From a virus (taxonomy: Duplodnaviria; Heunggongvirae; Uroviricota; Caudoviricetes), in IMG/VR virus record IMGVR_UViG_2713896896_000011, positions 1 to 16,007 of that record: DNA of 16,007 nucleotides, one strand, 5' to 3'. This document shows, one piece after another, positions 1 through 16,007 of the stretch. The position numbers and the translations under genes were made by a program. The stretch's first letter is position 1. Each line of letters starts with the position of its first letter. The notes beneath the pieces were generated by a model that saw only the letters and a list, made by a program, of their open reading frames with translations, was not told the origin of the DNA and did no database searches.

Positions 1-159
1 ATGCTGTTTCCTTGCATCATTGATGGGGAGTCTAAAAGACAAACTATATTTGAAGTGATTCATAACGCAATGTTTTTATGTTTAAAAATTGATTTTATTT
101 ACAAGGCGATGGGGGATTGCTGAAAAAATACTTTTACCCAGTTTCGCCAGCAGCTGGTC

Positions 160-423: not shown

Positions 424-440
424 AGCCCGGCGTTATTTTA
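412..440 (+). terminator. rho-independent terminator between convergent genes
   Basis: 8-bp GC stem cgccgggc (412-419) / gcccggcg (425-432), 5-nt loop, then TTATTTTA (433-440). Strong on the plus strand. The same hairpin follows the stop of the minus-strand gene 438-893, but with a weak U-tract in that direction. Confidence 0.6.
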
Positions 441-893
441 CGGCTGATATTGCCAACTGCTGACTAAAGCATACAAATGGTTTGGGGAATAGCGCCAACT
501 CTCTTTTAACTGCAGAAACTCGGCGCAAAATTCACTGCAAAACAGACGATTGCGCTGTTCTTTATTGCCAGTGATAATTCCTAAGGCTCCGCGCCAGTCG
601 TATTTTTTGCCATTATGTTTATGGAAAAAAGCTTCCACATCCTGAAAGCTAGCCTGGAGCGGTAGCATATCCCACTTATCTGACGGTAGTGGCATTATCT
701 TTCCGCGTACACCGCGATCGCGCAGTGATGCAGAGTAGCAAAGGTAATTTTTTTCACCATGTACCACTGCTAACTCGCAGTGGGAATAACTGCCGCGTGT
801 GATTTTACGGGTAAGCCAGTCAGCTAGTTGCGCAATACCCCGGTGCTCTGTTCGGCCTTTATAGCAAGCGAGCCAGACAGTGGTTTTACTCAT
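438..893 (-). CDS. hypothetical protein, last gene of the tail operon; possible Cys/His hydrolase (permuted papain-like / NlpC-P60-like), unverified
   Basis: 151-aa ORF whose ATG (893-891) overlaps the tail fibre assembly stop (892-890) as ATGA, indicating translational coupling. Normal GC. Contains His-containing SYSHCELAVVHGE and Cys-containing LFCSEFCAEF motifs; the family guess is from motif resemblance only. Confidence 0.55.
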   Translation of the reverse strand: MSKTTVWLACYKGRTEHRGIAQLADWLTRKITRGSYSHCELAVVHGEKNYLCYSASLRDRGVRGKIMPLPSDKWDMLPLQASFQDVEAFFHKHNGKKYDWRGALGIITGNKEQRNRLFCSEFCAEFLQLKESWRYSPNHLYALVSSWQYQP

Positions 894-1504
894 GGTTGCC
901 AGCCTGTGGAGTAGTCGTAGTCGAGCACCGCCTGAATATCGCCCAGAGTTTCCACCGCCGCAATATGGCGCTGGGCGTTGGCAAACAGGCGCATATCGTG
1001 AGCCATGGTGACGGATTCAAACTGGGCGGCGATTTCATTGGTTAACTCAATCAGACCGTTATTTTTAGTTTTCCACATTAAACCTGGCGGAATTTGTTTT
1101 TCGGCTCCCATTTTTGTGAGTGAGAGTTGTTGGATTCGGCTATTTGTATCACTGTGGAAGTGATAGCCGTTGAGGATGATGTAATCGGTTGTGATGTAAT
1201 CTCGTTTGGATTTTATTCTTCTTATTATATCTTCTTTTATTTCTGAAATAAATTTAAGTATTGAATCTGTATCAACTATCCATTCTCCTTTTTTCAGTTT
1301 GTGAAATTTATCTGGTGGTGGCATAGAAATGAAGGATAAATCTTCACAGTTAATCCAAGTTGGAATATTATCTCTTGCATATATCTGCCATTGCTGATCA
1401 GTTATTTCAACTAAATGTTCTACTTTGGGATAGTTGTAACGTTCTGTATCGAACCAGTCCAAAACAACAAATGTTTCAGGATCAAAACATGCATATTTTG
1501 TCAT
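890..1504 (-). CDS. tail fibre assembly protein (Tfa-like chaperone)
   Basis: 204-aa ORF immediately downstream of the tail fibre gene (6-nt gap). Size and position match Mu U / P2 G / lambda Tfa-type proteins. The N-terminal-encoding half (about 1200-1504) is strongly AT-rich, the C-terminal half has host-like GC. Confidence 0.7.
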   Translation of the reverse strand: MTKYACFDPETFVVLDWFDTERYNYPKVEHLVEITDQQWQIYARDNIPTWINCEDLSFISMPPPDKFHKLKKGEWIVDTDSILKFISEIKEDIIRRIKSKRDYITTDYIILNGYHFHSDTNSRIQQLSLTKMGAEKQIPPGLMWKTKNNGLIELTNEIAAQFESVTMAHDMRLFANAQRHIAAVETLGDIQAVLDYDYSTGWQP

Positions 1505-1510
1505 TTTTAA

Positions 1511-3169
1511 TTACCATGATATTTTTACGAAACCAGAGGCACCTTTTGTTCCGCTAGTATTGCCTAAGTTTGTTAATTCATTATTGTCATATTCAAAAGG
1601 AGGCAAATAAGATCCTCCCGCTCCTCCAGAACCATAGCCTATTGCTGGTGTCGGATGTGTCATTATTGCCTTACTTCCACCATTATCCAGATATTCTGTA
1701 ATAACAGTGCCAGCGCTCCCTCCTTTTCCATATATGGAATTTTCACCATTCTTGCCAGGATAAAATTCTGCATATAACCGTATTGCGCCAGGTGCATAAG
1801 TATTTGGATGGTCAATGAATTTTATACAAGGCTGCGTAGTGTTAAAGTGATAAATGTTATATCCCCCATGACCTCCTTTGGCAATCATATTAGAAAATGA
1901 AGAGTCACCACCATCAAAGCTTTTTTGTGTTTTCTCTGTGTTATCCGATGAATACTTTACTTGTGAAACAGGTGGATTATTCCAAAATGGACCTCCATTA
2001 CCTCCAGCCCCAACCTTTACTGAAAAATGCTGGCTTGGTTCCACGTTTAAGTAACCAACGAGCAATTCACCTGTATTGCCACCACATGCTTCATAATATG
2101 ATGATTGTGCTCCTCCGGCACCACCACCACCGCCGCCCATAACTTCCACAAATAATGTAGTTACGCCATCAGGAACTGTAAATGTTCCATTTGTAGTATA
2201 AAAACTAGTGTGAGTATGATTAGCCGGAGCTGCAGCATTAGCCTTATCCATTGCCGCCTTAACCGCACTCGGCGTGGCTGCCTCCGTCGTGCTGTTGCTG
2301 TCCGTCGCATTATTCAGCTTCACAATCCCTTTTTGCGTCAGGGTGCCATCCTGAATACCCGTAATCTGCCCCCAGGGATGCGTATGACTGCCTGCAGCTT
2401 TACCATTTGCCAGGTCATACGCCGCCTTAACCGCGCTCGGTGTCGCTGCCTCCGTCGTGCTGGTGCTATTGGTCGCGTTATTTAGCTTCACAATTCCTTT
2501 TTGAGTCAGCGTACCATCTGGAATATCAGTAATTTGACTCCAGGTATGACGATGGTTTCGTGCCTCAATCATCGCCGCTTTCACCGCTTTTGACGTAGCC
2601 GCTTTAGTTTCGTCATCACTGTCAGTGGCGTTACTCAACTGCGTAAAGCCTTTTTGCATTAACGTAGCATCAGGATGATTAGTCGAACGTGCATGTTTAT
2701 CCAGTTGTGAATCAACATAATCACGTGTTGCCAGTACAATACTGGGATCAACGGTGAGTGTTACCGCAGTCGTGTTGGAAACTTCCATAATGAGACGAAT
2801 GCAAACTTGCTTACCGCTGCCGCCGGGTAATAGCGGTTTATACGATTCTGGGAATTTACCGATAGCAATAAGTTCGCCGTCAGTATCAAAAACGCCGACT
2901 TCACGTACATACCAGCCGCCGATATTTTCGGGCAGTACAAGTTCCGCAATTAACCAGTTAGGATTACTGGGTGCAACTGTTAATGTATTTAACTCACCAC
3001 GCCATACTTCATGACGTAATTTTGCTTGACTCGCCGAGGGTTCGTAATATTGCCCACCGCCGTCTCCAACGGCCATCTTTTGCAGATGTAGTTGTTTTTT
3101 ATCCGCAAGAGCACTGGCAATTTTTGCCATCCCCCTGTCGGTCAGGAGGGTATAAAACTCATTATCCAT
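1511..3169 (-). CDS. tail fibre protein (P2 H / Mu S-like N-terminal domain, fibre repeats, Gly-rich C-terminal domain)
   Basis: 552 aa. N-terminus (MDNEFYTLLTDRGMAKIASA...MAVGDGGG) resembles the tail-collar fibre N-domain. Three tandem ~56-aa repeats (TLTQKGIVKLNNATDSNSTTEAATPSAVKAA) follow, then a C-terminal domain with poly-Gly (GGGGGGAGG) encoded by low-GC DNA. SD GGAG precedes the ATG at 3169. Confidence 0.85.
   Translation of the reverse strand: MDNEFYTLLTDRGMAKIASALADKKQLHLQKMAVGDGGGQYYEPSASQAKLRHEVWRGELNTLTVAPSNPNWLIAELVLPENIGGWYVREVGVFDTDGELIAIGKFPESYKPLLPGGSGKQVCIRLIMEVSNTTAVTLTVDPSIVLATRDYVDSQLDKHARSTNHPDATLMQKGFTQLSNATDSDDETKAATSKAVKAAMIEARNHRHTWSQITDIPDGTLTQKGIVKLNNATNSTSTTEAATPSAVKAAYDLANGKAAGSHTHPWGQITGIQDGTLTQKGIVKLNNATDSNSTTEAATPSAVKAAMDKANAAAPANHTHTSFYTTNGTFTVPDGVTTLFVEVMGGGGGGAGGAQSSYYEACGGNTGELLVGYLNVEPSQHFSVKVGAGGNGGPFWNNPPVSQVKYSSDNTEKTQKSFDGGDSSFSNMIAKGGHGGYNIYHFNTTQPCIKFIDHPNTYAPGAIRLYAEFYPGKNGENSIYGKGGSAGTVITEYLDNGGSKAIMTHPTPAIGYGSGGAGGSYLPPFEYDNNELTNLGNTSGTKGASGFVKISW
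2204..2683 (-). repeat. three tandem ~168-bp coding repeats inside the tail fibre gene (third copy degenerate)
   Basis: gccgccttaaccgcactcgg at 2253-2272 recurs as gccgccttaaccgcgctcgg at 2421-2440, a 168-bp period, matching the repeated protein motif. Confidence 0.8.
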
Positions 3170-3171
3170 AA

Positions 3172-3804
3172 TTACTCCGGGTAAATAGATGTAATTTCAA
3201 GGCTCCATTGCCCTGTTCCGTAAAAGATTGTTGTGTTTTGTTGTACTTCCCGTATCTGGAAAGGTAAAAGCGTCGTCAGTTCACCCCCATAAAGCGCACA
3301 GCTAATAACAGGGATAGCACTTTGGTTAATGATCCAGACGATTAATGCTTCCAGTTTTGAACGTGTGTTTTTATATTCATGAATGAGTTCAACTAACTCA
3401 TTGAAAAGGTTTTCATCCATGCCTTTATCCACCAGTTCTATGTCAACCTTAAAAAAATAAGCTTTCCCGCCATATTCAAACCATTCGGCAATAGTTCCAG
3501 GCAATGAGAGTATTTCCAGTACTCGCCGTACCGCCCAAACTGTTCCTTTATATTTATGTAACTCAATGGCTTGCTTAATTAACTCACGCTTCTCTTGTTC
3601 ATCAGTAGTAAATAACCAACCTTCCAGCCCCTGAACGTGAAATTGTTCTGCAAGGGCAGGTAATGCCGAAGCATCAACCAGGTCGACCAGATAAACCATC
3701 AACGCCGTCAGATCGAGTTGCGCAAAACGTTCGGCGGCGATATTTGCCAGAGTTGAAAAACGCTCATCGCTGGTAAGCGGCGGCGGTAGCAGCAATTTAT
3801 CCAT
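3172..3804 (-). CDS. baseplate protein, P2 gpI / Mu gp48-like (YmfQ / DUF2313-like)
   Basis: Lies between the J-like gene and the tail fibre. The ORF track starts at TTG 3819; the likely true start is ATG 3804-3802 (MDKLLLPP...) preceded by GGAG and overlapping the upstream stop by 8 nt. Family call is from size, position and sequence resemblance. Confidence 0.7.
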   Translation of the reverse strand: MDKLLLPPPLTSDERFSTLANIAAERFAQLDLTALMVYLVDLVDASALPALAEQFHVQGLEGWLFTTDEQEKRELIKQAIELHKYKGTVWAVRRVLEILSLPGTIAEWFEYGGKAYFFKVDIELVDKGMDENLFNELVELIHEYKNTRSKLEALIVWIINQSAIPVISCALYGGELTTLLPFQIREVQQNTTIFYGTGQWSLEITSIYPE

Positions 3805-4912
3805 CGCTGACTCCGGCAATCGTGACGTCTATTACAGTGCATTCCGCCCATTCATGCGCCTGCAAAATACGTTTTGTAGGCATGTTCAGCACAACGTCAT
3901 AGACGCCATCGACTTGTAACACTTTGATTATCTGGTTTGGCACAATGTCCTGCCCCAGATGTTTCTGCCGCTGTTGCGTCCAGAGGCTAATCGCTTTACG
4001 CGCCGCAGTCAGTGTTGTCTCCTGATCGGCGGTGGTAAACAGCGTTAGCTGCGCACGAATTTCATACGGCACCCTGAGAGCACATTTCGCACTTACTTTG
4101 TCAGTCAGCGGACGTTTTTTCTCTTTACTCACTTCTTGTTCAATTTGCGCGAGTAGCTCGGTTCCCGGCAGACCATTCAGGGTTAGCGGGTAGAGCTCGA
4201 CGCAGCCTTCTGGCAACCCTTCATCTGGCCCCAGTACTGCAACGTCAATAATTGACTGGCTAACCGAAAGTGTATGAAAGCGATATGCGCCATAGCTGCC
4301 GGCATTACTGAAGCTTTCTGGCGCCAGTTGTATACGCTGGCGTAGTGCATCATCGTTCTCTTCACCGCAACCGCCGGTTGTGGGAGTCAGATTAGTCACG
4401 TTGATATCGTAATAACCGATCCTGTCAACAAGGGCGCTAATCTGTGCAGGCTGCCAGCCATTGCCCTGTTCACCTGCTGCGAGGCTGGTGGCCGGAACGG
4501 CGATATGCAAACTCCTGGCCGGAAGCAGAACATCTTCATCGGTGGCGAACATCACGCTGTCAGAGGCACTGGCCCGCGTCCCCTGGGGAATCAGGATATT
4601 GCTGGTATACGCACTGACGACCGAAAACTGCAACGTCGTTTTTGCCGGTTGCGCAGGTAAACGGTGAACACCCACCAGCTCCCCTAAATAATCCAACATT
4701 GGTGCGCGGGAATACGCGACCAGGTTTTGTTTCGCCGCTTCCTGAATGGCGATGCGCACAAGGTTTTCACGATAGGCAAACAGGTCGATGAGTAACCGTT
4801 CGGCCTGTGCCGGATAGAGTTTTTTACCGCTGGCATCTTCGTATTGCGCAATCATCTCGCTGGTAATTTGCGCAGGATCGCGGTCAATAAAATCGGGTTC
4901 GGCTATCGCCAT
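3797..4912 (-). CDS. baseplate J-like protein (P2 gpJ / Mu gp47-like)
   Basis: 371 aa. Strong SD GGAGG 4-5 nt before the ATG at 4912. Overlaps the upstream gp25-like gene by 10 nt. Conserved position in the baseplate module. Confidence 0.8.
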   Translation of the reverse strand: MAIAEPDFIDRDPAQITSEMIAQYEDASGKKLYPAQAERLLIDLFAYRENLVRIAIQEAAKQNLVAYSRAPMLDYLGELVGVHRLPAQPAKTTLQFSVVSAYTSNILIPQGTRASASDSVMFATDEDVLLPARSLHIAVPATSLAAGEQGNGWQPAQISALVDRIGYYDINVTNLTPTTGGCGEENDDALRQRIQLAPESFSNAGSYGAYRFHTLSVSQSIIDVAVLGPDEGLPEGCVELYPLTLNGLPGTELLAQIEQEVSKEKKRPLTDKVSAKCALRVPYEIRAQLTLFTTADQETTLTAARKAISLWTQQRQKHLGQDIVPNQIIKVLQVDGVYDVVLNMPTKRILQAHEWAECTVIDVTIAGVSDG

Positions 4913-5262
4913 AACACCTCCGTTGAGTTGATTACGCCGTCAGCGGCGCGCCATTGCACACGTAACGTCAGATGTTCACCGTCGATTATCGGTGCTACCT
5001 TCAGCAACCGACATCGCGGTTCCCACTGGCGGATGGCTTCCACCGACTCCCGTACCACATGCGGGATTGCCCGCTCGATGGGGTAATCGATGTAGTGCCA
5101 CAAGTTGCTGCCAAACAGCGGTCTGTGGGGATCACTGCCGCGCGGCGTGCGCAGAATGATGTGTATTGCCTGGTGAATATCATCCAGTCCGCAGACGTAT
5201 TCTTCAGGCCGCTGCAAGGCGGGTTGCCAGTGCAGCGTTGAGGGGCGTGTTTTTGTGTTCAT
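4903..5262 (-). CDS. baseplate wedge protein, gpW / gp25-like (Mu gp46-like)
   Basis: 119 aa. Contains RPLFGSNLWHYIDYP, resembling the gp25/W signature. Located between the spike and the J-like gene. Confidence 0.75.
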   Translation of the reverse strand: MNTKTRPSTLHWQPALQRPEEYVCGLDDIHQAIHIILRTPRGSDPHRPLFGSNLWHYIDYPIERAIPHVVRESVEAIRQWEPRCRLLKVAPIIDGEHLTLRVQWRAADGVINSTEVLWR

Positions 5263-5325
5263 GTGCTTATTTTCGCCCTGAACGGACAGTGGGGATATTA
5301 AAGCGATTTAGAAAACTGATTGATT

Positions 5326-5355
5326 AAAAAGAGAAAACCCGCCATCAGGCGGGTT
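5326..5355 (-). terminator. intrinsic terminator-like hairpin immediately after the spike gene
   Basis: Stem aacccgcc (5336-5343) / ggcgggtt (5348-5355), loop atca. On the minus-strand RNA it is followed by UUCUCUUUUU (plus 5326-5335). Sits in the 98-bp gap between the spike and gp25-like genes. Confidence 0.55.
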
Positions 5356-5360
5356 AAAAG

Positions 5361-6020
5361 CTAGTGTGAATGGTGATTTGAGTTACCACCGCTATCCTGC
5401 AATGTGCCGCTGGCCTGAACGTTACCAATCACATTGACATTGCCAGTTATCGTGGCGGCGTTACCGATGCCTCCACTTCCTGCCATGCCACCCAGCCAGG
5501 TGAGTTTTTTCATTACCGTGACGTTACCAGTAAAGGTGCTCATGGGCGCATCTACCGTCACTGTCGCCGCTTTAATATCGACGGTATCGGAAGTCACGGT
5601 GACCTGTTGGGCTTTAACCTCAACGTTGGGTGATGTCAGGTTAGTATGGTCAATAACCTCAATCACGATTTTCTCAATACCGCCGTTAATCGTAAGCTGG
5701 TGTGTGCTGCGGTCATATTCAAACGCTGCGCCATCAGAAAACTGGACGTAACGTTTATCTCGCGAGGCCACAGGCGCGGTGTCAACCGTAGAATAAACGG
5801 CCCCAAGTACCACGCCATCTTCGCCGTTGTCGTCCAGCAGAACTTCCACCTGCTCACCCATATCCGGTAGCCAGTAGTCTTTATTGTCCTGGGAATTACG
5901 TTGAAGTACCGCAAGCCAGTTACTCTTCAGATTGTCGCACTCTGGCAGTGTGACTCGCACCCGAACGCTGGTTTCGTCAATATCGCTGATAATCCCCGTT
6001 TGCCGGGTTACTCCCTTCAT
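5361..6020 (-). CDS. baseplate central spike / assembly protein V-like (Mu gp45-like)
   Basis: 219 aa. N-terminus GIISDIDETSVRVRVTLPECDNLKSNWL resembles gpV. C-terminal repetitive beta-helix-like region (GNVTV...GNVNVIGNVQASG) ends in the His-rich tip NSNHHSH. SD GGAGG 4 nt upstream of the ATG. Confidence 0.8.
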   Translation of the reverse strand: MKGVTRQTGIISDIDETSVRVRVTLPECDNLKSNWLAVLQRNSQDNKDYWLPDMGEQVEVLLDDNGEDGVVLGAVYSTVDTAPVASRDKRYVQFSDGAAFEYDRSTHQLTINGGIEKIVIEVIDHTNLTSPNVEVKAQQVTVTSDTVDIKAATVTVDAPMSTFTGNVTVMKKLTWLGGMAGSGGIGNAATITGNVNVIGNVQASGTLQDSGGNSNHHSH

Positions 6021-6029
6021 AGTGCCTCC

Positions 6030-7070: not shown

Positions 7071-7270
7071 GGTGGTATCTCCGATAAGGTTTTGTTGACG
7101 GAAATGACCGGAATAATGAGTTGAATACCGGAAGGCAGTACCGGGTAAATGGCGACATGTGGATTGGCGGCGATGATGCGTTCATAAGCCAGCGCATCGC
7201 CGTAGTAATACCATGCCAGATTATCCCAGCGTTCGCCGTCGGTGGTGATATGTTCAAGGTATCGCATCAC
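7058..7270 (-). CDS. tail protein X-like (LysM-like small tail protein)
   Basis: 70 aa. WYYYGDALAYERIIAANPHV...IQLIIP matches the LysM-like pattern of P2 gpX-type proteins. Start overlaps the upstream stop as ATGA. Confidence 0.7.
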   Translation of the reverse strand: MMRYLEHITTDGERWDNLAWYYYGDALAYERIIAANPHVAIYPVLPSGIQLIIPVISVNKTLSEIPPWLR

Positions 7271-8220: not shown

Positions 8221-10595
8221 CAGGCATACCCCCGGCGCTGTTGTTGCGCCATTACGTCGTTAATCATTCTTTCCAGTTCGCGTTTACTTATCGTCAACAC
8301 GTTCTGAATGTCTTTAGTGGTGTTTTGTCCGTTACTCTGCACGGTAATTTGTGGCGAAAAATTCACCTGAACTTTTCCAGAGGAACGGGAGGGGAGCGTC
8401 GCCGGTTTGGTTACAGATTTACCAGGTAAAGAGGCCGATGCGGGTTTGGCGGCTGTATTTTTTGCCGCTGGTGTCGATGGCGACGTTGTCGTTTTACTGG
8501 ATGGCGCGAGTTGTTTGCCCACAGGAGGCGTTAAAATCGCTCCGGCAACGCCTGGAACAACGGTCGTGGGGGAGATTGATGCGGTATTCGTCGTGCTTGT
8601 AACAGCCGTAGCCGATCCTTCTGTGCTAATACCCATCGTGGTTTTTAGCCAGTCCGGTAAGGCGTTTTTGACCTGATCAATAATGCCTTTCAGAGCGGGG
8701 AAAGCATTCATTATGCCGTCAACCAGACTGCCCAGAAGATTGCTGCCGAACTCGCTAAAACTTGCAGGCATCTCGACACCAAACCAATTCATCACACTGG
8801 AAAAGGCGCTGTAGAACAACTCCAGCGGCGACCAGTCGAGAATTAACCGGCAAATCCCTGCAATGCCGCCGTCAAAGGCCGTGGTGATACGTTGCCAGAT
8901 GGCGGAAAAGAATCTGGAGATAGGTTCCCAGTGGCGATAGATCAGATAAGCAGCGCCCGCAATCGCGGTGATGACCAGACCAATGGGATTCATCAATAAA
9001 ACTCTACCCAACCAGAAGACGGTCTGACCTGCCAGTTTCAATGCGCCAATCAGGCCACGGCCAAGCAGTTGCGTTAGCCATTTTGCGCCGTTATATAATG
9101 ACTTAACCGCTGATAGCATCTTACTTGCCGCGCCTGTGAGCGTCAGACTTGCCCTGACTTTCAGGAAGATATCGACCAGACGAATAAACGGCGAGGCGAT
9201 GACGTTCGCGCCCAGCTTTAAAACATTCAGTGCGCCGTTAAACAGCCAAATCGCTCCGACGATTTTCGCAATGTTTTGCACCAGCGCCGGGTGTTCACGT
9301 AGCCAGGCGCTGAACTGGCGAATCACCGGAGTAAGGCTTTGCGCCAACTCGCCAATCAGCGGCATTAATTGCAAGCCAATGCTGAGCCATAAATCATTTA
9401 ACGCCAGTTGTAACGTTTTAGTTTGTTCAATGGGTGAGGCCATCTGCACAGAAAAATCGTTGTCAATCAGATTCTTACCGCTGTCTTGCATGGCGGAGGC
9501 TTTTAACTGGCGATACTCTTCCATATTCGCCAGCACAGGTGCCAGGAATTCCACTGTTTGCGCATCGCCGAACATTTCGCCCAGATTAAATTGCGTCACC
9601 ATCGATTGCAGTGCGTTGCTGCGAGCAGATAAATCTTCAATTTGCATGGTGCGTTTGAAGGTGTCGAGGATCGCCGGATTCATCTTCTCAAGTTGCGTTT
9701 GCACGATATGAATCATGGCTTCGCTAACACCCATGCCGTTTTGCTGATGTTCAAGCAGAGAGCCTTGCAGATCGACGCCCTGGCTGACGAACCAGTTATC
9801 GGTTTTTTTCGAAAAGATGGTTTGCAGAAAGTGGTCGAAATTCTCCGCCGCCACACTGGCGCTGGCACCATTTTTCATTGCGATCTGCATTGTGGCGGTC
9901 AGTTCAGCCATACCTTCTAAACCCTGTGCGCCAGTTTTAACTGCAAATTTGTCTATCCACTGTGTTTGCCCGGCAACGGTAGGCCCACCGTTTTTGCTAA
10001 TGCCGTACATCATGTTTTGCGCGGCGTGGAAATTTTCTGGCGCAATATTCAGTCGATCATGAGTCGCGAGCGCGGCATTCGCCCATGTTTCAGCACTTTC
10101 GCGCGTGGTGGTGGCCGCTTTGGCGATCTCCGGCATATAACGGTTGAGATCCTGCATCGACGACAAATTACCTTCGATTAGCACCTGGGCTGCGTTCTGT
10201 AAGGTGGTCTGCTGCTGGTTAAAATCCATGCTCCAGTCGCGCAGATTAAGGCTGAGTGTCTCGCGGGTTGTATCATTCATCCCACCTTTGGTCGCCAAAT
10301 TGACCATGTTGTCCTGAAACTCATACGGCAACTTCCAGTCAGGGATTTCAACATTGAATACTTTGCTAAATTGCCCGGCAAATGTTTGGGTTTTCTCCAT
10401 CAGATCAGCGCGGTTTCGGCTATTTTCCTCCAGGCGGAGAGCGGAATCGGCAAGTTGCTGCGTTAGTTTGATTACTGTCGCTTGCTGAGAAGAGAGTGCT
10501 AACAATGTTCTGGCGTTGAGTGAGCCGTAACGGGCTATTGCCTGCGTCAACGTCTCATTACGCGCCTGAAGCTGGGTAATAATATCGTTGGCCAA
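8220..10595 (-). CDS. tail tape measure protein
   Basis: 791 aa with internal hydrophobic segments and a Ser/Thr/Pro-rich C-terminal tract, located between chaperone and baseplate genes. Apparent start is TTG at 10595-10593 with AAGAG upstream; there is no in-frame ATG between the upstream stop (10634-10632) and the TTG. Confidence 0.85.
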   Translation of the reverse strand: MANDIITQLQARNETLTQAIARYGSLNARTLLALSSQQATVIKLTQQLADSALRLEENSRNRADLMEKTQTFAGQFSKVFNVEIPDWKLPYEFQDNMVNLATKGGMNDTTRETLSLNLRDWSMDFNQQQTTLQNAAQVLIEGNLSSMQDLNRYMPEIAKAATTTRESAETWANAALATHDRLNIAPENFHAAQNMMYGISKNGGPTVAGQTQWIDKFAVKTGAQGLEGMAELTATMQIAMKNGASASVAAENFDHFLQTIFSKKTDNWFVSQGVDLQGSLLEHQQNGMGVSEAMIHIVQTQLEKMNPAILDTFKRTMQIEDLSARSNALQSMVTQFNLGEMFGDAQTVEFLAPVLANMEEYRQLKASAMQDSGKNLIDNDFSVQMASPIEQTKTLQLALNDLWLSIGLQLMPLIGELAQSLTPVIRQFSAWLREHPALVQNIAKIVGAIWLFNGALNVLKLGANVIASPFIRLVDIFLKVRASLTLTGAASKMLSAVKSLYNGAKWLTQLLGRGLIGALKLAGQTVFWLGRVLLMNPIGLVITAIAGAAYLIYRHWEPISRFFSAIWQRITTAFDGGIAGICRLILDWSPLELFYSAFSSVMNWFGVEMPASFSEFGSNLLGSLVDGIMNAFPALKGIIDQVKNALPDWLKTTMGISTEGSATAVTSTTNTASISPTTVVPGVAGAILTPPVGKQLAPSSKTTTSPSTPAAKNTAAKPASASLPGKSVTKPATLPSRSSGKVQVNFSPQITVQSNGQNTTKDIQNVLTISKRELERMINDVMAQQQRRGYA

Positions 10596-10684
10596 AATTG
10601 TTTCTCTTATAGATTGGTGATGGCCCGCTGGTTAGTTTTCTGAAAAATGGGCTGGGAAGAAATAAACCTGGCGGGCTTTGAAGA

Positions 10685-10709
10685 ACTCGCAGACATCAGG
10701 TCTGCGAGT
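10685..10709. other. 10-bp perfect stem-loop in the chaperone-tape measure spacer
   Basis: actcgcagac (10685-10694) / gtctgcgagt (10700-10709), 5-nt loop. The loop contains the stop codon (10698-10696) of the +1-frame extension ORF. No adjacent U-tract on either strand. Confidence 0.5.
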
Positions 10710-10846
10710 CATATTCGATTTTTATTTGAGCGCTGGCTTCATCCAGCCAGTGACTAAAGTCATCTATCGTGAGCGCGTCAATCTCACTGGGTGGAAAGCG
10801 AAACCATCTCGCCAGTAGCGCCATTGCCTGCCATAGCAGGGGGGGA
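10696..10846 (-). other. candidate programmed-frameshift extension of the tail assembly chaperone
   Basis: A C7 run on the coding strand (plus 10839-10845) lies inside the chaperone gene. The +1 frame stays open from there to TGA at 10698-10696, 88 nt beyond the 0-frame stop; the -1 frame ends at 10766-10764. Chaperone-tape measure pairs with frameshift products are a conserved feature of tailed phages. Confidence 0.3.
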
Positions 10847-11101
10847 TTCTGTAGCCACGGTAAGCATGGATTGAAATCGTTTCTGCAACGCCTGGTAATC
10901 CAGCAAATCCATTTCAGCTAAATCTTCTGGTACCAGCCCGGTCATCGCTGCCATTAGCGGTTCATCCCATTCTTCCGGCTTTTCGCTGACCCGGCGTGCA
11001 TTACGCATATCTTTGACTTTCAGGCGACGTAATTGTAGCGTGTCGATATTATTTCCTGCTGCCGACGTAAAGGGAAACTGTAAGATATAATGCTCTTTCA
11101 T
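10784..11101 (-). CDS. tail assembly chaperone (Mu gp41 / P2 gpE-like)
   Basis: 105-aa acidic protein directly upstream of the tape measure, with SD AAGGA before the ATG at 11101. Conserved position. Confidence 0.7.
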   Translation of the reverse strand: MKEHYILQFPFTSAAGNNIDTLQLRRLKVKDMRNARRVSEKPEEWDEPLMAAMTGLVPEDLAEMDLLDYQALQKRFQSMLTVATESPPAMAGNGATGEMVSLSTQ

Positions 11102-11127
11102 TTTGTATCCTTATTTATTTTGCGGAG

Positions 11128-11147
11128 TTCGGGGCCGTAGCCCCGAA
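11128..11147. other. stable stem-loop between tube and chaperone genes
   Basis: ttcggggc (11128-11135) / gccccgaa (11140-11147), loop cgta, 4 nt after the tube stop. No U-tract follows on the minus-strand RNA, so it is not a canonical terminator. Confidence 0.5.
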
Positions 11148-11151
11148 TAAC

Positions 11152-11676
11152 TTAGCCACCGATGTTATTGCGATAGGTACTTAATTGATCCACGCCGTTA
11201 ACGCGGAAAATATTCGCCATATAATCCAGTTCAAGCAGCGTTTCACCATCGACTACTTGTTTAATATAAGTGCAGCCAAAGGCGCTGCTGAATTCCGGGT
11301 TTTCATTCTGTTTAAATGTGCCCAGTGGATTTTTTTTAAACATCACGGTTAAATGTGTGACTAACGCTAATTGATTCGCTTTCCCCTGAGAGTTATAACA
11401 ATCAATACTGGAGCGACACTGTAATGCTACAGCCTGCCACGGGTTTGCCGTTTTACGCATTACGTCCTGGTAAAAGGAGTTCCATTTAATTTCCCCCTCC
11501 AGTTTATCGAAACCAGCCGGGAGTTCTATTTTACCCACCATGCCCAGTGCTTTATGTTCCTGCATAATTAAACTGACATCTGGCAATTTAATTTCTGTTG
11601 CACGGCCTAAAAGATTATTACCATCGAGATAAATATTGGCGTTGGTAATACGGTTAATTTGAATTTTTCCAGCCAT
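11152..11676 (-). CDS. tail tube protein (Mu M / P2 FII-like)
   Basis: 174 aa, immediately after the sheath gene (TAATG overlap), in the conserved sheath-tube order of contractile tails. Confidence 0.8.
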   Translation of the reverse strand: MAGKIQINRITNANIYLDGNNLLGRATEIKLPDVSLIMQEHKALGMVGKIELPAGFDKLEGEIKWNSFYQDVMRKTANPWQAVALQCRSSIDCYNSQGKANQLALVTHLTVMFKKNPLGTFKQNENPEFSSAFGCTYIKQVVDGETLLELDYMANIFRVNGVDQLSTYRNNIGG

Positions 11677-13097
11677 TAGCGATTGCTCTCCAGAGAGACT
11701 AAATATTCAGAGGTAATTTCAGTTTCAAACGTCAGACGTTCCAGCGGCGGCGGTGGGGTAAATTTATAGCTGAGCAATAAATGCCCGGCACTGAGTTCAG
11801 CCGGTGAATTTCGCGCCGGATCGTACCAGCACTCAAAGCCAAGCAGTGCGCCGTCGGCAATCAGTTTTCGGCCCCAGGTATTTACCGATTCGGTCAGCGC
11901 GTCAATCAGTGCCTGATTGATCGGCATATCAATATACTGCTGACTGAAATAACGGATTGACTCATTAATTACATCGCCTGTCCGGCGAACGTTTTCAAAG
12001 TTACGCATATGAGTCACGGTTGGCCATGCCGCTGTGCGGTTGCCCCACAGGCGCAGACCAGAACCATAACTATTGAAAATAGTGGTAATACCGTTTTCGT
12101 TGAGCTGATTCACTTCGCTTTGTGGATCATCAATCATTGCGGAAAGCGAACGTTCGATACCGGTAATACCCTGAATTTCCTGGTTTGAGTTGCTCCACCA
12201 GAAACCTTTTTCGAGGTCTACTTTGGCACGTAGCCCGGCAGCGCGCGAAGAGAGAGGTTCAAGAATTTCCTGGTTAGTGATGCCATCGTAAACTTTGACG
12301 TGTGGGTAGCATAAACGTGCACGATCAGAGCTGGTATTGAAGTTGATTGCGCCTTGCGAACCGCGTCCAGCCAATACCTGCTGGAATGTAGTCCCAATTG
12401 GGGCATCAATGTAGGTAATCGCACCGAGTTTTTCCGCTTGTGCAATCAGCTCGGTAGTCACTGATTTTTGCGTACAAAAAACGGGTGCCAGCAGAATTTT
12501 GGCGTAGAAACCATACAAGTTATAAGTGTCCTGAAGGAGCCTCATCCCCGTGCGATCGCCTGCGGTATTAACGGCCCCGATAATATCGGCTGCGGTGACC
12601 TTTGTAGGGTCAACATAGGTATAAGTCGCGTAAACCTTTGCTCCTGCCGCAATTTCAGTTCCTGTACGGGTAATAACGCCGTCAGCGGCATTAACGCTGT
12701 ATGATGTATTTTTGTATGTAGTGGAACTGATACTTGCTCTTAGCGTTACCGAACTTACCCCCGGATGAGTTAATTTAGCTTTATCGTCACTATTGAACGT
12801 AATGGTTTCATTGGTAATGTGTAGTCCATGTTTTACTGGATCCAGCACATTAATTACCACCACTGTACCGGCACCGTGATCATAAATCGCCTTCAGCGCC
12901 TGCGGGATCGTAAAGTTAGCCTGAGTCGATCCAAACTGTGCCGCGTCACTTTCAGAAAGGCACAGCGTCGGTTGGTTTACCGGGCCACAGGGAGCGGTAC
13001 CGATTAAAGCGATTACAGCAGATTTTACTGCTTTTACCGGACGCGGGCCGGTTTCAATTTCAATGGTTTCTACACCGTGCAGATAATTAGCTGCCAT
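11676..13097 (-). CDS. contractile tail sheath protein (Mu L / P2 FI-like)
   Basis: About 473 aa. The ORF track starts at TTG 13103; the more likely start is ATG 13097-13095 (MAANYLHG...) preceded by GAGGAA. Size and position are typical of sheath proteins. Confidence 0.85.
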   Translation of the reverse strand: MAANYLHGVETIEIETGPRPVKAVKSAVIALIGTAPCGPVNQPTLCLSESDAAQFGSTQANFTIPQALKAIYDHGAGTVVVINVLDPVKHGLHITNETITFNSDDKAKLTHPGVSSVTLRASISSTTYKNTSYSVNAADGVITRTGTEIAAGAKVYATYTYVDPTKVTAADIIGAVNTAGDRTGMRLLQDTYNLYGFYAKILLAPVFCTQKSVTTELIAQAEKLGAITYIDAPIGTTFQQVLAGRGSQGAINFNTSSDRARLCYPHVKVYDGITNQEILEPLSSRAAGLRAKVDLEKGFWWSNSNQEIQGITGIERSLSAMIDDPQSEVNQLNENGITTIFNSYGSGLRLWGNRTAAWPTVTHMRNFENVRRTGDVINESIRYFSQQYIDMPINQALIDALTESVNTWGRKLIADGALLGFECWYDPARNSPAELSAGHLLLSYKFTPPPPLERLTFETEITSEYLVSLESNR

Positions 13098-13284
13098 GTA
13101 CAATTTCCTCTACGTTATTTTGTTCTTCCTGGGGAATGATGAGAATCAAGTGATTTCGGGCAATCATGGTCATAACCCACTCATTGTCTTCTGGCAGATC
13201 AATTTCACTGTTCGGCCATAATAAGATTTCTTGACCGTCGGCAAGGGTGACGCCGCTTGCCGGACCGTTGTAGATATATTTCAT
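13087..13284 (-). CDS. small conserved protein upstream of the sheath (Mu gp38 / DUF2635-like)
   Basis: 65 aa. Start overlaps the upstream stop as ATGA; overlaps the sheath start. Assignment by position and size only. Confidence 0.5.
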   Translation of the reverse strand: MKYIYNGPASGVTLADGQEILLWPNSEIDLPEDNEWVMTMIARNHLILIIPQEEQNNVEEIVHGS

Positions 13285-13736
13285 TCAGTTTCCTCGTAAT
13301 TAACTTCAGTAAGCAGGGGAAGATCCGTGCTGTCCTGTTCAGCGATAAACAGCGAGCTGGTCGCCATTTCCAGGATGTAGCGGCAGAAACCGTCGCTCTC
13401 ACCCGTATTAATTTCTTTTTCAAGCCAAATAAGATGATCGCAATCAGGAGGCTGAAGGCCTCCCAATGCGCTGCGTATGTGATCAAGTGCGTTTAACGCA
13501 TCACAATTTTTGCCAACAATAACGGTGGCGGTTAAGCGGAGTATTTGCTGTTGTACAATGGCATCACTACTTTCGGGCGTGGTGAAGACAGAACCGCTAT
13601 AATTAATAATCACCGTAATCTGTTGTGTCTGTGGAATATATTTTGGGGCATCCGTAGATGAAATGAATATGTCCATTTCAGGATGCCGATCACGTAATCT
13701 GACCACGACATAATTCATTACAGATAAAACTTTCAT
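13281..13736 (-). CDS. tail terminator / tail completion protein (Mu gp37 / K-like)
   Basis: 151 aa, first gene of the structural module after the terminator hairpin, with SD AAGG upstream of the ATG at 13736. Sits where Mu-like genomes encode gp37 before the sheath. Confidence 0.5.
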   Translation of the reverse strand: MKVLSVMNYVVVRLRDRHPEMDIFISSTDAPKYIPQTQQITVIINYSGSVFTTPESSDAIVQQQILRLTATVIVGKNCDALNALDHIRSALGGLQPPDCDHLIWLEKEINTGESDGFCRYILEMATSSLFIAEQDSTDLPLLTEVNYEETE

Positions 13737-13842
13737 ATGAGGTTTACCTTATTACCGCTCACTTCGTTATCGTTGAAATGTATTCTGAAGCAGTGAGAGT
13801 GAAGAATCTTTTAATGTGATTTAGAGAAAAAATTGAATGGTT

Positions 13843-13877
13843 ATAAAAAATCCCCACACTTACGTAAAGGTGGGGAT
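13843..13877 (-). terminator. rho-independent terminator separating the lysis cassette from the tail structural genes
   Basis: Near-palindromic 28-bp hairpin (13850-13877; arms atccccac / gtggggat) 5 nt after the stop of gene 13882-14196. On the minus-strand RNA it is followed by UUUUUUAU (plus 13843-13850). Confidence 0.65.
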
Positions 13878-13881
13878 GTAT

Positions 13882-14196
13882 TTAATAACTGCCACGTTGT
13901 AATAACTCTATTTTGCTATATAAGGCATCCAGCTTTGCTTCTAATACTGCTTGTCCACGAAGATAATCCTCTCTGCGGACATAATACAGTGGAAGTTCGG
14001 CACGAAATTCGAGAAATTCTCTTTCCAGTTTCGACCAGCTTGTTTCTGATTCCCTGCGGGCATTTTCCAGGGACTCAAAACGCTCATTAAGTCTTTTTTC
14101 AATTTGCGCTAACAGCAATTTTCCGGCAGCAAACATTAATCCAACGAATGAAAGCATAAAGGAGATCACTTCCCAAAAATCGATACTGAGTTTCAT
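13882..14196 (-). CDS. membrane-anchored coiled-coil lysis accessory protein (i-spanin-like or releasin-like)
   Basis: 104 aa. N-terminal hydrophobic segment (WEVISFMLSFVGLMFAAGKLLL) followed by a charged coiled-coil region. SD GAGGGG 4 nt before the ATG. Immediately downstream of the lytic enzyme. Confidence 0.5.
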   Translation of the reverse strand: MKLSIDFWEVISFMLSFVGLMFAAGKLLLAQIEKRLNERFESLENARRESETSWSKLEREFLEFRAELPLYYVRREDYLRGQAVLEAKLDALYSKIELLQRGSY

Positions 14197-14208
14197 CGGC
14201 CCCTCTGA

Positions 14209-14814
14209 TTAGTGAAGACAGCTTGCCTGTCCCCAGAGTAAGTAGCGGGCGGCGTGTTGATAGAGAATCATCTTCGGATAGTGACGATTTTCTCGCCAGT
14301 TTGCGGCGCTGCGCCCGGCGTTGACTTGCTCAACATGACCAAACCAGATGGCGGCATTTAACCCTTTTGTTGTCGCCAGTTTTTTATCCCGGTTAATCCA
14401 ACCCTGACCACCGTTATAGGCGCTTAGAGTAAACGCCATACGTTGACAATCATTTTTTGCAGAGATGTTGTTCCATAAATGCTGGTCGTACTGTACCAAC
14501 GCCCGGATTGCCCAGGTTGGGTTATACGGTTTGTTTTCATGTAGCTGTGGATACAGTTGGCTTATCCATGTCGCTGTGGCAGGCATAAATTGCGCCATAC
14601 CTTGTGCGCCAACGGGGGAACGTACCATTGGCTGCCAGGCGGACTCCTGGTGTAATTGCCCGGCAAAGTCAGCCACCGGAGCGTTCAGTCCCCAGACTTC
14701 TCGGGCGGTACGAATCAATTCATTTCTCCATGCCAGAGAGGCTTGTGGTGGTTCAGACGCGTTAAGCGGGAAAAGAACGAAAATAATCATAGGCGCGATA
14801 TATTTTAGCCACAT
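14209..14814 (-). CDS. lytic transglycosylase-type endolysin (SLT domain) with N-terminal signal or signal-anchor
   Basis: SLT-like motifs (QLHQESAWQP with the catalytic Glu context, GAQGMAQFMPATA, AYNGG). The likely start is ATG 14814-14812 (MWLKYIAPMIIFVLFPLNA...), abutting the holin-like stop in TAGTGATG. The ORF track's longer start at 14913 overlaps the upstream gene and is probably not used. Confidence 0.75.
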   Translation of the reverse strand: MWLKYIAPMIIFVLFPLNASEPPQASLAWRNELIRTAREVWGLNAPVADFAGQLHQESAWQPMVRSPVGAQGMAQFMPATATWISQLYPQLHENKPYNPTWAIRALVQYDQHLWNNISAKNDCQRMAFTLSAYNGGQGWINRDKKLATTKGLNAAIWFGHVEQVNAGRSAANWRENRHYPKMILYQHAARYLLWGQASCLH

Positions 14815-14816
14815 CA

Positions 14817-15104
14817 CTATAGCCCTAACGCGACGGAAAGGCAGACTGCAGCCACGATGATGGCGCGACGAATCATTGCCGCTGCGTAGCAACGCGGTTC
14901 CTTTCTGGGGCAAAAAAAGTCAGGCCGTGCCCAGGGGAACAAACTACGATCGAGCCAGTATCCCAGCACTGCAGAAAGTGAAACCAGGCTTAGTTTATAA
15001 ATGACGACCGGAATTTGTGCTGAAGATGTCCAGCCGATTAATGCGATCAGAGCAATGGCTGCAGCCAGCCAACCGGAAAGACGGGGAAAAGTGATTTTTC
15101 TCAT
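14817..15104 (-). CDS. holin-like small membrane protein, first gene of the leftward operon
   Basis: 95 aa with two or three hydrophobic segments. Strong SD AGGAGA (15116-15111) 6 nt before the ATG at 15104. Directly upstream of the lytic transglycosylase. Confidence 0.55.
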   Translation of the reverse strand: MRKITFPRLSGWLAAAIALIALIGWTSSAQIPVVIYKLSLVSLSAVLGYWLDRSLFPWARPDFFCPRKEPRCYAAAMIRRAIIVAAVCLSVALGL

Positions 15105-15659
15105 ACGATATCTCCTGATAAGTGAGATACCAGTGTCTGCTTATCTCTTTGCTGAAGAATGAAAAAAGCTTTAATAAATAACTTTAAAAAATGTGTTCTC
15201 TTCGAATTAACATGTTCGCCAATTAATCTCCCAACTCAAAATAGAGAACTAAGGATAAAATGGCTGCTAGTTAGATAAATCCTGCGTTATGTGTAATGAA
15301 GGGGATGACATATTGCAATCATGGTCATTACTTATTTGATTTTTAAAGTTTGTTTAAAAAAATCCTCGACTGTGAGGGAAACGAGCTTTTTGAAAAGTAG
15401 GCGATAAAAATGATAAATAGCACTGTATATGTATACAGTATCGTGTAAAATGGCACTCCTGTTGATAAGACATGTAATGAAAATAATATATTTGTTTTGT
15501 GAATTTATAATTCGTTTTAATTTTTATTGCATATACATTGTGATTATTTATTTGCGTGTTGAATGTATTGAAAAGCAGTAATTGCACCAACTTAGCGGAT
15601 ATCCGTGGTGTAACTCACATCAGAGTCCATACAGGGTGCAAGATATATGGAGATGAAAA
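15105..15659. promoter_or_regulatory. AT-rich divergent control region between the lysis/tail operon and the Mor-like gene
   Basis: About 555 bp at roughly 28% GC, flanked by divergently oriented start codons with good Shine-Dalgarno sequences on each side. Contains the LexA-like box and several dyad symmetries. Confidence 0.6.
15421..15440. promoter_or_regulatory. LexA (SOS) box
   Basis: CACTGTATATGTATACAGTA matches the E. coli LexA consensus TACTGTATATATATACAGTA at 18 of 20 positions, with intact CTGT-N8-ACAG (15423-15438). A TTGAAA -35-like hexamer at 15390-15395 and AT-rich -10-like sequence TGATAAAT (15411-15418) lie just upstream on the plus strand. Confidence 0.7.
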
Positions 15660-16007
15660 ATGATACAAAAAGCAAAAGAGATGACCCGGACACCGGAGAT
15701 CATTAACGATTTGGCGTTTCATGCTTCGCAAGTTCTGATTGAGAGCATCAATCTGGATAGCTCATCTGCGGAAAATGTTGGCTATGCCATTGCCGATCGC
15801 ATGATGCGAAACTGGGGCGGACAAAGCATTTATTTTCCAAAAGGAATCGCCAGGCGTGCCTCGGAGCGGGACTATCAAATCTATAGCGAGTGCGATGGGC
15901 GCAACTACGCCGAATTAGCGAAGAAATATAATCTGACGCTGCAATGGATTTATAAGATAGTAAAACGCGTGCATACAGAAAAGCAGCAACAGCGCCGTAT
16001 GCAGTAG
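15660..16007 (+). CDS. Mor/C-family transcriptional activator (Mu middle/late activator-like)
   Basis: 115 aa. C-terminal region GGQSIYFPKG...RDYQIYSECDGRNYAELAKKYNLTLQWIYKIVKR aligns by eye with Mu Mor (GGQVYIPRG...RIWNDFNGRNVSELTTRYGVTFNTVYKAIRR). SD GGAGA 6 nt before the ATG. The stop codon is the last triplet of the window. Confidence 0.7.
   Translation: MIQKAKEMTRTPEIINDLAFHASQVLIESINLDSSSAENVGYAIADRMMRNWGGQSIYFPKGIARRASERDYQIYSECDGRNYAELAKKYNLTLQWIYKIVKRVHTEKQQQRRMQ

Follow-up and report, generated by a model that had tools for sequence, protein, structure and literature searches.

A head-less BcepMu-like tail and lysis gene cluster beside lysC in Escherichia albertii, a candidate SOS-inducible R-type tailocin

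R-type pyocins stem from a P2-like phage and answer to PrtR/PrtN rather than to LexA and Mor, while the control of carotovoricin involves the Mor-family protein RdgB and its fibre specificity is switched by DNA inversion. Carotovoricin is a Mu-type tailocin found in most Pectobacterium genomes, DNA-damage-inducible and bactericidal (PMC11974492, PMC13566846) and subject to SOS control (PMC13566846), and R-syringacin illustrates that Mu-like phages can be co-opted (PMC4542187). Here we analyse the IMG/VR virus record IMGVR_UViG_2713896896_000011, a stretch of 16,007 nucleotides (referred to at its full length as the window), which carries a cluster of contractile-tail and lysis genes with an adjacent activator gene, located next to lysC. 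Our favoured reading, which we hold to be probable, is that a BcepMu-like (Bcepmuvirus) transposable prophage lost its head genes and became fixed in the chromosome, and that what remains of it works as an SOS-inducible R-type tailocin. This reading draws direct support from the gene content, the missing head, packaging and transposition genes, the flanks, the conservation and purifying selection of the genes, and a LexA box. R-type tailocins, and a Mu-type example from the Enterobacterales, are already known, and the lysC-linked cluster is most likely an additional, uncharacterised one with kinship to a tailocin of plant pathogens.

The likeness to the R-type pyocins of Pseudomonas aeruginosa and to R-syringacin of P. 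syringae is one of logic: a head-less contractile tail, a lysis cassette and an activator, whose DNA-damage control is a prediction for the window. There is no orthology between those systems and the window cluster, and they occupy other loci in other hosts. In the searchable literature we found nothing that treats the lysC-linked cluster as a tailocin, and no account of where it occurs, of its LexA box or of its separate origin from carotovoricin. The same search returned no native contractile tailocin from either E. coli or Salmonella; what it did return were pyocins and head-less phages made by engineering. The 'tailocin' of E. coli ST131 (PMC9205054) was set aside as an intact P2-like prophage unrelated to the lysC-linked cluster.

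The window is 100% identical to Escherichia albertii contigs (ABZSLW010000003.1 over 4817-16007 and BBVE01000025.1 over 1-10893, by exact-protein look-ups), and NCBI names a protein identical to the window Gp37 as Escherichia albertii; CP045690, a further carrier of the cluster, is likewise an E. albertii genome (PMC10673567). In these contigs the right flank runs from the Mor gene to lysC, pgi, psiE and malGFE, and the left flank from a gene for a protein of 151 amino acids (aa) to a nucleotidyltransferase 3' remnant (window 212-437), a GT4 glycosyltransferase gene, yjbD, rluF and the sorbose (sor) operon. No capsid, portal, packaging, terminase or transposase gene was found within 9-10 kb on either side, and head, packaging and transposition genes were likewise missing beside the E. 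coli and Salmonella orthologs. Within the window, none of the open reading frames (ORFs) matched a curated family of capsid, portal, protease, terminase, integrase or transposase proteins, as an earlier note on this DNA, made from its letters, had claimed; tblastn with the early and head proteins of BcepMu and of phage PhiKM also gave no match, in the window or in the source-strain flanks. The examination of the flanks for capsid, portal and terminase genes had been set beforehand as a refuting test, and the cluster proved to be flanked by lysC-pgi and yjbD-rluF. We regard the cluster as truly head-less because these core-gene flanks hold no head, packaging or transposition genes.

Hidden Markov model (HMM) and family scans recovered the full contractile-tail set that the earlier note had listed on the minus strand, each gene matching a curated family. 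Sheath, tube, chaperone, tape measure, hub, spike, wedge and fibre, the gene set of an R-type tailocin, are all intact, and the cluster possesses its own lysis cassette of holin and SLT endolysin, without a spanin. The combination of lysis genes, tail genes and a dedicated activator, also described in that note, was borne out in all parts, with Mor as the activator and a conserved LexA box adding a predicted SOS control of the kind typical of bacteriocins. The genes are as follows (window coordinates, with E-values of family matches).

15660-16007, plus strand: Mor/C-family late transcription activator, 115 aa, complete (Pfam Mor, E 8e-38; PHROG 'late transcriptional activator', E 7e-36)
14817-15104, minus strand: holin, 95 aa (Pfam Holin_2-3, E 7e-26; PHROG holin, E 3e-34)
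14209-14814, minus strand: SLT lytic transglycosylase endolysin, 201 aa from ATG (Pfam SLT, E 4e-14; PHROG endolysin, E 3e-61)
13882-14196, minus strand: 104-aa protein with N-terminal transmembrane segment and coiled coil, last gene of the lysis unit (phrog_462, E 3e-32)
13281-13736, minus strand: Gp37-family protein (Pfam Gp37, E 1e-32; PDB 2GJV, an ortholog, E 8e-53)
13087-13284, minus strand: gp38-like protein, 65 aa, in the position of BcepMu gp38 (phrog_895, E 2e-32)
11676-13103, minus strand: tail sheath (Pfam Phage_sheath_1 and Phage_sheath_1C), 70-75% identical to Bcepmuvirus sheaths
11152-11676, minus strand: tail tube (Pfam Phage_tube, E 4e-56), protein 100% identical to the E. coli ortholog
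10784-11101, minus strand (10696-11101 with its +1-frame extension): TAC_7 tail assembly chaperone, 105 aa (Pfam Phage_TAC_7, E 2e-19)
8220-10595, minus strand: tape measure, 791 aa (Pfam PhageMin_Tail, E 1e-11)
7267-8220, minus strand: GpU-domain tail protein with coiled-coil extension, 317 aa (Pfam Phage_P2_GpU, E 6e-34; phrog_788, E 2e-130)
7058-7270, minus strand: tail protein X (Pfam Phage_tail_X, E 2e-22)
6030-7070, minus strand: gpD-type baseplate hub (Pfam Phage_GPD, E 1e-10)
5361-6020, minus strand: gpV-type spike with a His-rich C-terminal tip (ending NSNHHSH; Pfam Phage_base_V, E 8e-8)
4903-5262, minus strand: gpW/gp25 baseplate wedge (Pfam GPW_gp25, E 1e-10)
3797-4912, minus strand: gpJ baseplate protein (Pfam Baseplate_J, E 2e-62)
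3172-3819, minus strand: gpI baseplate/fibre-attachment protein (Pfam Tail_P2_I, E 3e-34)
1511-3169, minus strand: tail fibre, 552 aa (Pfam Phage_tail_fib, Phage_fiber_2 and Gly_rich_2)
890-1504, minus strand: DUF4376 fibre assembly chaperone (Pfam DUF4376, E 8e-13)
438-893, minus strand: 151-aa protein, last gene of the second tail unit (phrog_1128, E 2e-57; ortholog STM4198)

By sheath sequence the nearest phages, with 70-75% of amino acids identical, are Escherichia phage PhiKM, Klebsiella phage KP12, BcepMu and phiE255, all of them Bcepmuvirus. On the BcepMu map, Mor (gp01) ends a leftward early operon that includes the transposase, with gp17 as the repressor, and the rightward genes run from holin gp21, SLT gp22, Rz/Rz1 gp23/24, gp25 and gp26 through TerS, TerL, portal, MuF, G, protease/scaffold, major capsid and gp35-gp38 to the sheath and onwards to the fibre. 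Taking two blocks out of this map, one being gp02-gp20 and the other Rz/Rz1 together with gp26-gp36, gives the window, in which Mor consequently stands back-to-back with the holin and the gp25-like gene adjoins gp37. Bcepmuvirus phages resemble the window in the order and homology of their lysis and tail genes and in having Mor/C on the opposite strand, and differ from it in carrying transposase A/B, GemA, repressor, Rz/Rz1, gp26, TerS, TerL, portal, MuF, G, protease/scaffold, major capsid, gp35 and gp36. The tail and lysis proteins of the window nest within the Bcepmuvirus radiation in the same gene order, and the window is not a functional prophage of that genus, having no transposase A/B, repressor, terminase, portal or capsid gene. 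The comparison with Mu-like and SfV-like phages in the earlier note needs adjusting: the nearest phages are neither Mu nor SfV but Bcepmuvirus, a Mu-like transposable group whose tail genes are of P2 type.

To place the cluster among its relatives, a sheath scan with one genome per species yielded 74 loci, which were classed by tblastn with the window proteins and the early and head proteins of BcepMu and PhiKM. Seven loci, all beside pgi-lysC, form what we call class 1 (the window, E. coli, Salmonella, two Superficieibacter, Phytobacter massiliensis and Dryocola) and share the arrangement Mor, holin, SLT and gp25-like gene, then, across the deletion junction, gp37, gp38 and sheath through to fibre. 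Ten Pectobacterium species and Samsonia carry holin, SLT, Rz, gp25 and gp26 joined to gp37 and the genes that follow; we infer that this Pectobacterium head-less class is the carotovoricin cluster. Apart from the head-less loci described below, the remaining loci are full prophages. In a neighbour-joining tree of concatenated sheath, tube, D, W and J proteins (100 bootstraps), class 1 was monophyletic in 100/100 replicates and so was the carotovoricin class (100/100), and the two formed an exclusive clade in 0/100; the carotovoricin class instead joined full phages of the PhiKM type, with class 1 left outside (100/100). Head-less Brenneria loci nested among full Brenneria and Pectobacterium prophages (100/100). 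From these placements it follows that three or more separate losses of the head took place within this genus of phages, and that the lysC-linked cluster represents an event of its own.

The gene-level comparison with carotovoricin-type loci agrees. These are head-less and of BcepMu-like ancestry, as is the window, with sheaths 73-76% identical and the same order of holin and SLT upstream of gp37, gp38, sheath, tube, chaperone, tape measure, U, X, D, V, W, J, I and fibre. Their deletion junction, however, joins gp26 to gp37 with Rz retained, whereas in the window the gp25-like gene meets gp37 and Rz is lost; they do not lie at lysC, and neither an adjacent Mor nor a LexA box was found within about 7 kb upstream. 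Clade, junction and location all differ, which indicates that the lysC-linked cluster is a domestication separate from the Pectobacterium clusters. The suggestion in the earlier note that a Mu-type tail in an enterobacterial background would be independently derived holds with respect to pyocins and to the Pectobacterium clusters (given their 0/100 exclusive clade), but such a Mu-type tailocin was already known in the Enterobacterales, namely carotovoricin (PMC13566846, PMC11974492).

Other loci of the survey show further arrangements. Lelliottia wanjuensis (L016) has the same junction of gp25 and gp37 as class 1 and keeps transposase genes, and two Brenneria loci (L019, L025) are head-less and keep early and transposase genes; these look like intermediate stages. 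In three Chromobacterium loci (L062, L065 and L068), also head-less, Mor directly abuts gp37 with no lysis genes between.

Turning to distribution, 244 of 5426 complete E. coli genomes match the window, 191 of them over at least 80% of its length at ~91% identity, and always on the chromosome. In an annotated E. coli example the cluster lies between a nucleotidyltransferase/slipin/yjbD group and lysC, and the same architecture stands next to pgi-lysC in six genera. A codon-level comparison of all 20 genes put the ratio of non-synonymous to synonymous divergence (dN/dS) at 0.00-0.26 for the pairing with E. coli and at 0.04-0.28 for that with Salmonella, indicating that the cluster genes are under purifying selection, and no premature stops were found in the E. 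coli, Salmonella, Superficieibacter and Dryocola copies. Synonymous divergence (dS) from E. coli is 0.11-0.67 for cluster genes and 0.26-0.89 for flanking core genes; as it falls within the core-gene range, it fits a long co-residence with the chromosome. The mosaic dS values, and a class 1 tree that matches genus relationships imperfectly, leave room for recombination.

At the right edge, lysC, the neighbour of Mor, is unusually diverged between E. albertii and E. coli carriers (85% nucleotide identity, dS 0.89; L004 7700-9049 against L001 31047-32396), compared with 92-94% and dS 0.26-0.38 for pgi, psiE and malG of the same carriers. A contrast of this kind suggests that the cluster boundary has seen recombination or hitch-hiking. 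At the left edge, the segment between the 151-aa gene and yjbD, to which window 1-437 belongs, varies by strain, holding either slipin (Band_7) and RlaP-type nucleotidyltransferase genes (L001 13287-15211) or a GT4 glycosyltransferase gene (Pfam GT4-conflict; L011 10471-12209), the latter variant including the window's own strain. A PADLOC scan gave no hits for the slipin, the nucleotidyltransferase, the GT4 glycosyltransferase, a 242-aa ORF, the 151-aa protein or Mor, and Rfam, tRNA and repeat scans of the window returned nothing relevant.

The Mor gene diverges from the lysis genes, its stop codon being the last codon of the window, and encodes a protein that shares 94% identity with its counterpart in E. 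coli and 90% with STM4219 of Salmonella. The AT-rich spacer of 555 bp between Mor and holin is mostly unalignable between genera, yet holds two conserved islands, a LexA box and a block upstream of the holin. These and the other control elements of the cluster are listed here.

15421-15440: LexA (SOS) box CACTGTATATGTATACAGTA, core CTGT-N8-ACAG at 15423-15438, followed by conserved GTGTAAAATG
15154-15194, minus strand: AT-rich block before the holin gene (ACATTTTTTAAAGTTATTTATTAAAGC...), conserved across six genera and a candidate for the promoter from which an activator would drive the lysis genes
13843-13875, minus strand: intrinsic-terminator-like hairpin with U-run after the lysis unit (-15.5 kcal/mol, z -3.4)
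13782-13825, minus strand: late-promoter-like element upstream of gp37, TCTAAATCACATTAAAAG, 20 nt, CAGAAT (17-nt motif with 0 mismatches; conserved across genera)
11128-11147, minus strand: GC-rich hairpin without U-run directly after the tube gene (-17.8 kcal/mol, z -3.7)
5326-5355, minus strand: intrinsic-terminator-like hairpin with U-run after V (-15.3 kcal/mol, z -4.5)
5269-5312, minus strand: second late-promoter-like element, upstream of W, TCTAAATCGCTTTAATAT, 20 nt, GAAAAT (17-nt motif with 0 mismatches)

The LexA box is the only CTGT-N8-ACAG in the window, where 0.16 would be expected by chance. Compared with what we take to be the LexA consensus, it agrees at 18/20 positions and the Salmonella copy at 19/20. 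All seven class 1 loci possess the box; it precedes the Mor ATG by 310 bp in one of them and by 238-249 bp in the others. No such AT-rich box was found in the corresponding region of the phage, carotovoricin-type, Brenneria, Lelliottia and Chromobacterium relatives, whose few CTGT-N8-ACAG matches are GC-rich and located elsewhere. In the window a promoter-like site pointing leftward (TTTACA-16-TACAGT) overlaps the box with its -10, and the box sits just 5' of rightward promoter candidates (TAAAAT at 15446-15451; TTGATA-16-TAATAT at 15462-15489). On these sequence grounds the predicted SOS control of the cluster is well supported. Silencing of the AT-rich spacer by H-NS is plausible as an additional layer of control.

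The elements upstream of gp37 and of W share TCTAAATCNCNTTAANA, each copy located 20 nt before a -10-like hexamer and just after a U-run hairpin. This geometry is the same as that of what we take to be the Mor binding position at Mu Pm (about -50 to -33). The element upstream of W is conserved in 7/7 loci and is kept in Salmonella downstream of a gtrABC insertion; the hairpin after the lysis unit is conserved in most lysC-linked loci. The shared 17-nt motif occurs twice in the window at 0 mismatches and three times when 3 mismatches are allowed, which is not above chance, so the block upstream of the holin is only loosely related to the other two elements, and its function as a promoter is putative. 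Taken together, the terminators and the conserved elements lead us to propose three units that would depend on Mor: the lysis genes; gp37 to V; and W to the 151-aa gene. The hairpin after the tube gene has its stem kept in 7/7 class 1 loci; it may stabilise or attenuate the transcript and in this way fix how much sheath and tube is made relative to later products.

The targeting module of the cluster varies between strains. The fibre consists of an N-terminal collar domain, three fibre repeats (encoded by a 168-nt direct repeat at 2211-2546) and a glycine-rich C-terminal domain. Between E. albertii strains with otherwise ~99% identical clusters, the C-terminal half of the fibre and the N-terminal half of its chaperone have been replaced together, the swapped tips showing 0-28% identity in most C-terminal 50-residue blocks, and the window fibre is nearer to that of an E. 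coli strain. Such exchange of the fibre tip is expected of a targeting module under diversifying selection, as in tailocins and phages. The window holds no invertase, in contrast to the fibre switching of carotovoricin.

Among the structural proteins, Gp37 evolves fastest, with 58% identity to Salmonella, 41-52% to Superficieibacter, Phytobacter and Dryocola, and dN/dS of 0.26-0.28, compared with 79-94% identity for sheath and tube. What had been called a terminator-like protein is present, its identity now corrected to the BcepMu gp37 family. We take that family to be tail terminator-like and head-proximal, and PDB 2GJV to be Salmonella STM4215, a gp37 homolog, in keeping with an STM4215 locus-tag note on the Salmonella ortholog. 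An AlphaFold2 model of Gp37 (nine near-identical sequences; predicted local distance difference test score, pLDDT, 52) was discarded, and the putative role given here rests on the sequence match to 2GJV. The fast divergence of Gp37 may reflect relaxed constraint once gp36, its head-joining partner, was lost.

Elsewhere in the tail genes, the sheath probably starts at an ATG at 13097, giving 473 aa, and the codons of the gpV tip are conserved across six aligned genera. The chaperone overlaps a +1-frame extension peptide (LLARWFRFPPSEIDAL...WLDEA) that is conserved at the amino-acid level in all relatives, BcepMu included, and an E/E'-type frameshift product therefore seems to be retained. A C7 run was considered as the slip site of the chaperone and dropped, as it is not kept in other genera.

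The lysis cassette likewise matches its phage counterparts, with an exception. The holin, the SLT transglycosylase and an accessory protein of 104 aa announced in the earlier note are all present, but no Rz/Rz1 spanin was found; neither within the 104-aa gene nor behind it did a search turn up an embedded lipoprotein ORF of Rz1 type. The SLT endolysin has a hydrophobic N-terminus and is the homolog of BcepMu gp22 and of the protein at the SLT position in PhiKM; the 104-aa protein is homologous to the gp25-position protein of BcepMu-like phages and matches the PhiKM 'membrane protein' downstream of Rz.

The 151-aa protein that closes the second tail unit models as a permuted papain-like (YiiX/C92-type) cysteine hydrolase fold (AlphaFold2, pLDDT 82). 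The predicted model matched a single PDB entry, the cysteine peptidase 3KW0 (E 1.4e-4). Two residues of the protein, His38 and Cys119, are invariant. Homologs of the gene in Pasteurellaceae prophages are often annotated as enoyl-CoA hydratase.

The Salmonella ortholog, STM4198-STM4219, occupies the same lysC site with the same gene order (Mor being STM4219 and the sheath STM4213). In Salmonella LT2 its proteins are 58-96% identical to those of the window and the LexA box is present, whereas the fibre tip differs and an O-antigen glucosylation operon, gtrABC (STM4204-STM4206), has been inserted so as to separate V from W, ahead of the conserved promoter-like element of W (seen in Salmonella Infantis SARB27, L090 28118-30953). 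As fibres of such tails often bind lipopolysaccharide, gtrABC could modify the producer's own receptor. In the searchable literature the locus is called a phage remnant, is noted for carrying gtr and supplies a PCR marker (STM4200), but does not figure as a tailocin.

We postulate that the cluster works through a circuit from LexA via Mor to the late promoters, ending in particle production and killing. DNA damage would lead to LexA cleavage and its removal from the box in the Mor-holin spacer, upon which Mor would be made, and direct leftward transcription might start too. Mor would then switch on the holin, endolysin and 104-aa protein genes, the unit from gp37 to V and that from W to the 151-aa gene. 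Tails would assemble on the baseplate without heads, to a length of ~120 nm (791-aa tape measure at 0.15 nm per residue), and holin and transglycosylase would lyse the producer cell. The released particles would bind related bacteria through the exchangeable fibre tip, and contraction of the sheath would drive the gpV spike with its His-rich tip to puncture the target envelope.

We favour the tailocin reading because the tail and lysis set is complete and intact, with a structural complement equal to that of the Pectobacterium head-less clusters, and because the core-gene flanks, the shared lysC synteny and the 100/100 monophyly of class 1 all support it. It also accounts for the low dN/dS, the conserved LexA box, the promoter-like elements placed after terminator hairpins and the retained frameshift extension, and for the joint swapping of fibre tip and chaperone N-terminus, and it has a precedent in carotovoricin as a DNA-damage-inducible, bactericidal Mu-type tailocin. 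Several observations weigh against it. The LexA box overlaps the leftward -10, and either divergent unit, not only that of Mor, could be the one LexA represses. Bunny, Liu and Roth reportedly found in 2002 that lexA null mutants of Salmonella LT2 free of Fels-2 are viable; loss of LexA alone may therefore not suffice for lethal lysis from the ortholog. We found no report of particles or killing from the lysC-linked locus in any host. There is no Rz/Rz1 spanin, unlike in the phages and carotovoricin-type loci, and release may be inefficient as a result. The full-length cluster is present in only ~3.5% of complete E. coli genomes, and the Phytobacter massiliensis copy appears damaged, with J covered at 67% and I containing an in-frame stop (L017 18562-19939). 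Finally, the Salmonella ortholog has been called merely a phage remnant (PMC7380047).

The last four of these points also speak for an inert BcepMu-like prophage remnant, in which head and early genes were deleted and the rest decays, making no particles and having no selected function: the literature label (PMC7380047), the patchy occurrence (191-244 of 5426 E. coli genomes), the lost spanin and the apparently damaged Phytobacter copy all count towards it. We nevertheless consider a remnant improbable. The E. albertii, E. coli, Salmonella, Superficieibacter and Dryocola copies keep around 20 ORFs unbroken, with dN/dS of 0.00-0.28 at dS reaching saturation, and had they been decaying neutrally over so large a divergence, most genes would by now be disrupted. 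Conservation also extends to the LexA box, the promoter-like elements, the terminators and the frameshift extension. Domestication for another job, either SOS-triggered lysis that releases colicins, toxins, vesicles or DNA, or the donation of tails to capsids of another resident element, strikes us as unlikely, if a little easier to entertain. The lysis genes do form a proposed transcription unit of their own directly beside the LexA box, gp37, taken above to be head-proximal and terminator-like, is retained, and tailocin endolysins are reported to drive vesicle production in other species. Yet the genes for baseplate, spike, fibre and chaperone are selected as strongly as the lysis genes and the fibre tip is actively exchanged, which points to receptor-directed action by the particle itself; moreover, the head-tail adaptor gp36 is deleted, and family scans of the window show no cargo gene, toxin gene or ATPase. 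That the window belongs to a still-mobile or complete phage, its head and transposition genes lying elsewhere or just outside, would be in line with the Lelliottia and Brenneria relatives that keep transposase genes next to a head-less tail cluster. We give this very little credence, because in the window's strain, as in each of the six genera, lysC-pgi and yjbD-rluF directly flank the cluster; a transposase gene is missing, and the chromosomal site is common to all genera.

A more far-reaching version of the tailocin reading is tentative, and we would sooner expect parts of it to fail than the whole to hold. A single old domestication of a BcepMu-like phage beside lysC, predating the split of the genera or since spread by homologous recombination of the flanks, could have given rise to a native R-type tailocin of Escherichia, Salmonella and allied genera, with control rewired to a minimal circuit running from LexA to Mor, targeting swapped between strains and, in Salmonella, gtr possibly protecting the producer against its own particles. 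As far as we know, no native contractile tailocin was described earlier in these model and pathogenic species, so that it would be the first.

If active, the lysC-linked cluster would equip E. albertii, Salmonella and some E. coli with a natural means of killing particular strains, bearing on gut competition, on sensitivity linked to serovar or O-antigen, and on tailocin engineering in a native chassis. For these phages, it adds to a clean case of repeated head loss in one genus, with at least three events in addition to the head-less Chromobacterium loci, and with differing regulatory solutions: predicted direct LexA control and a linked Mor here, versus no linked regulator in the carotovoricin-type loci.

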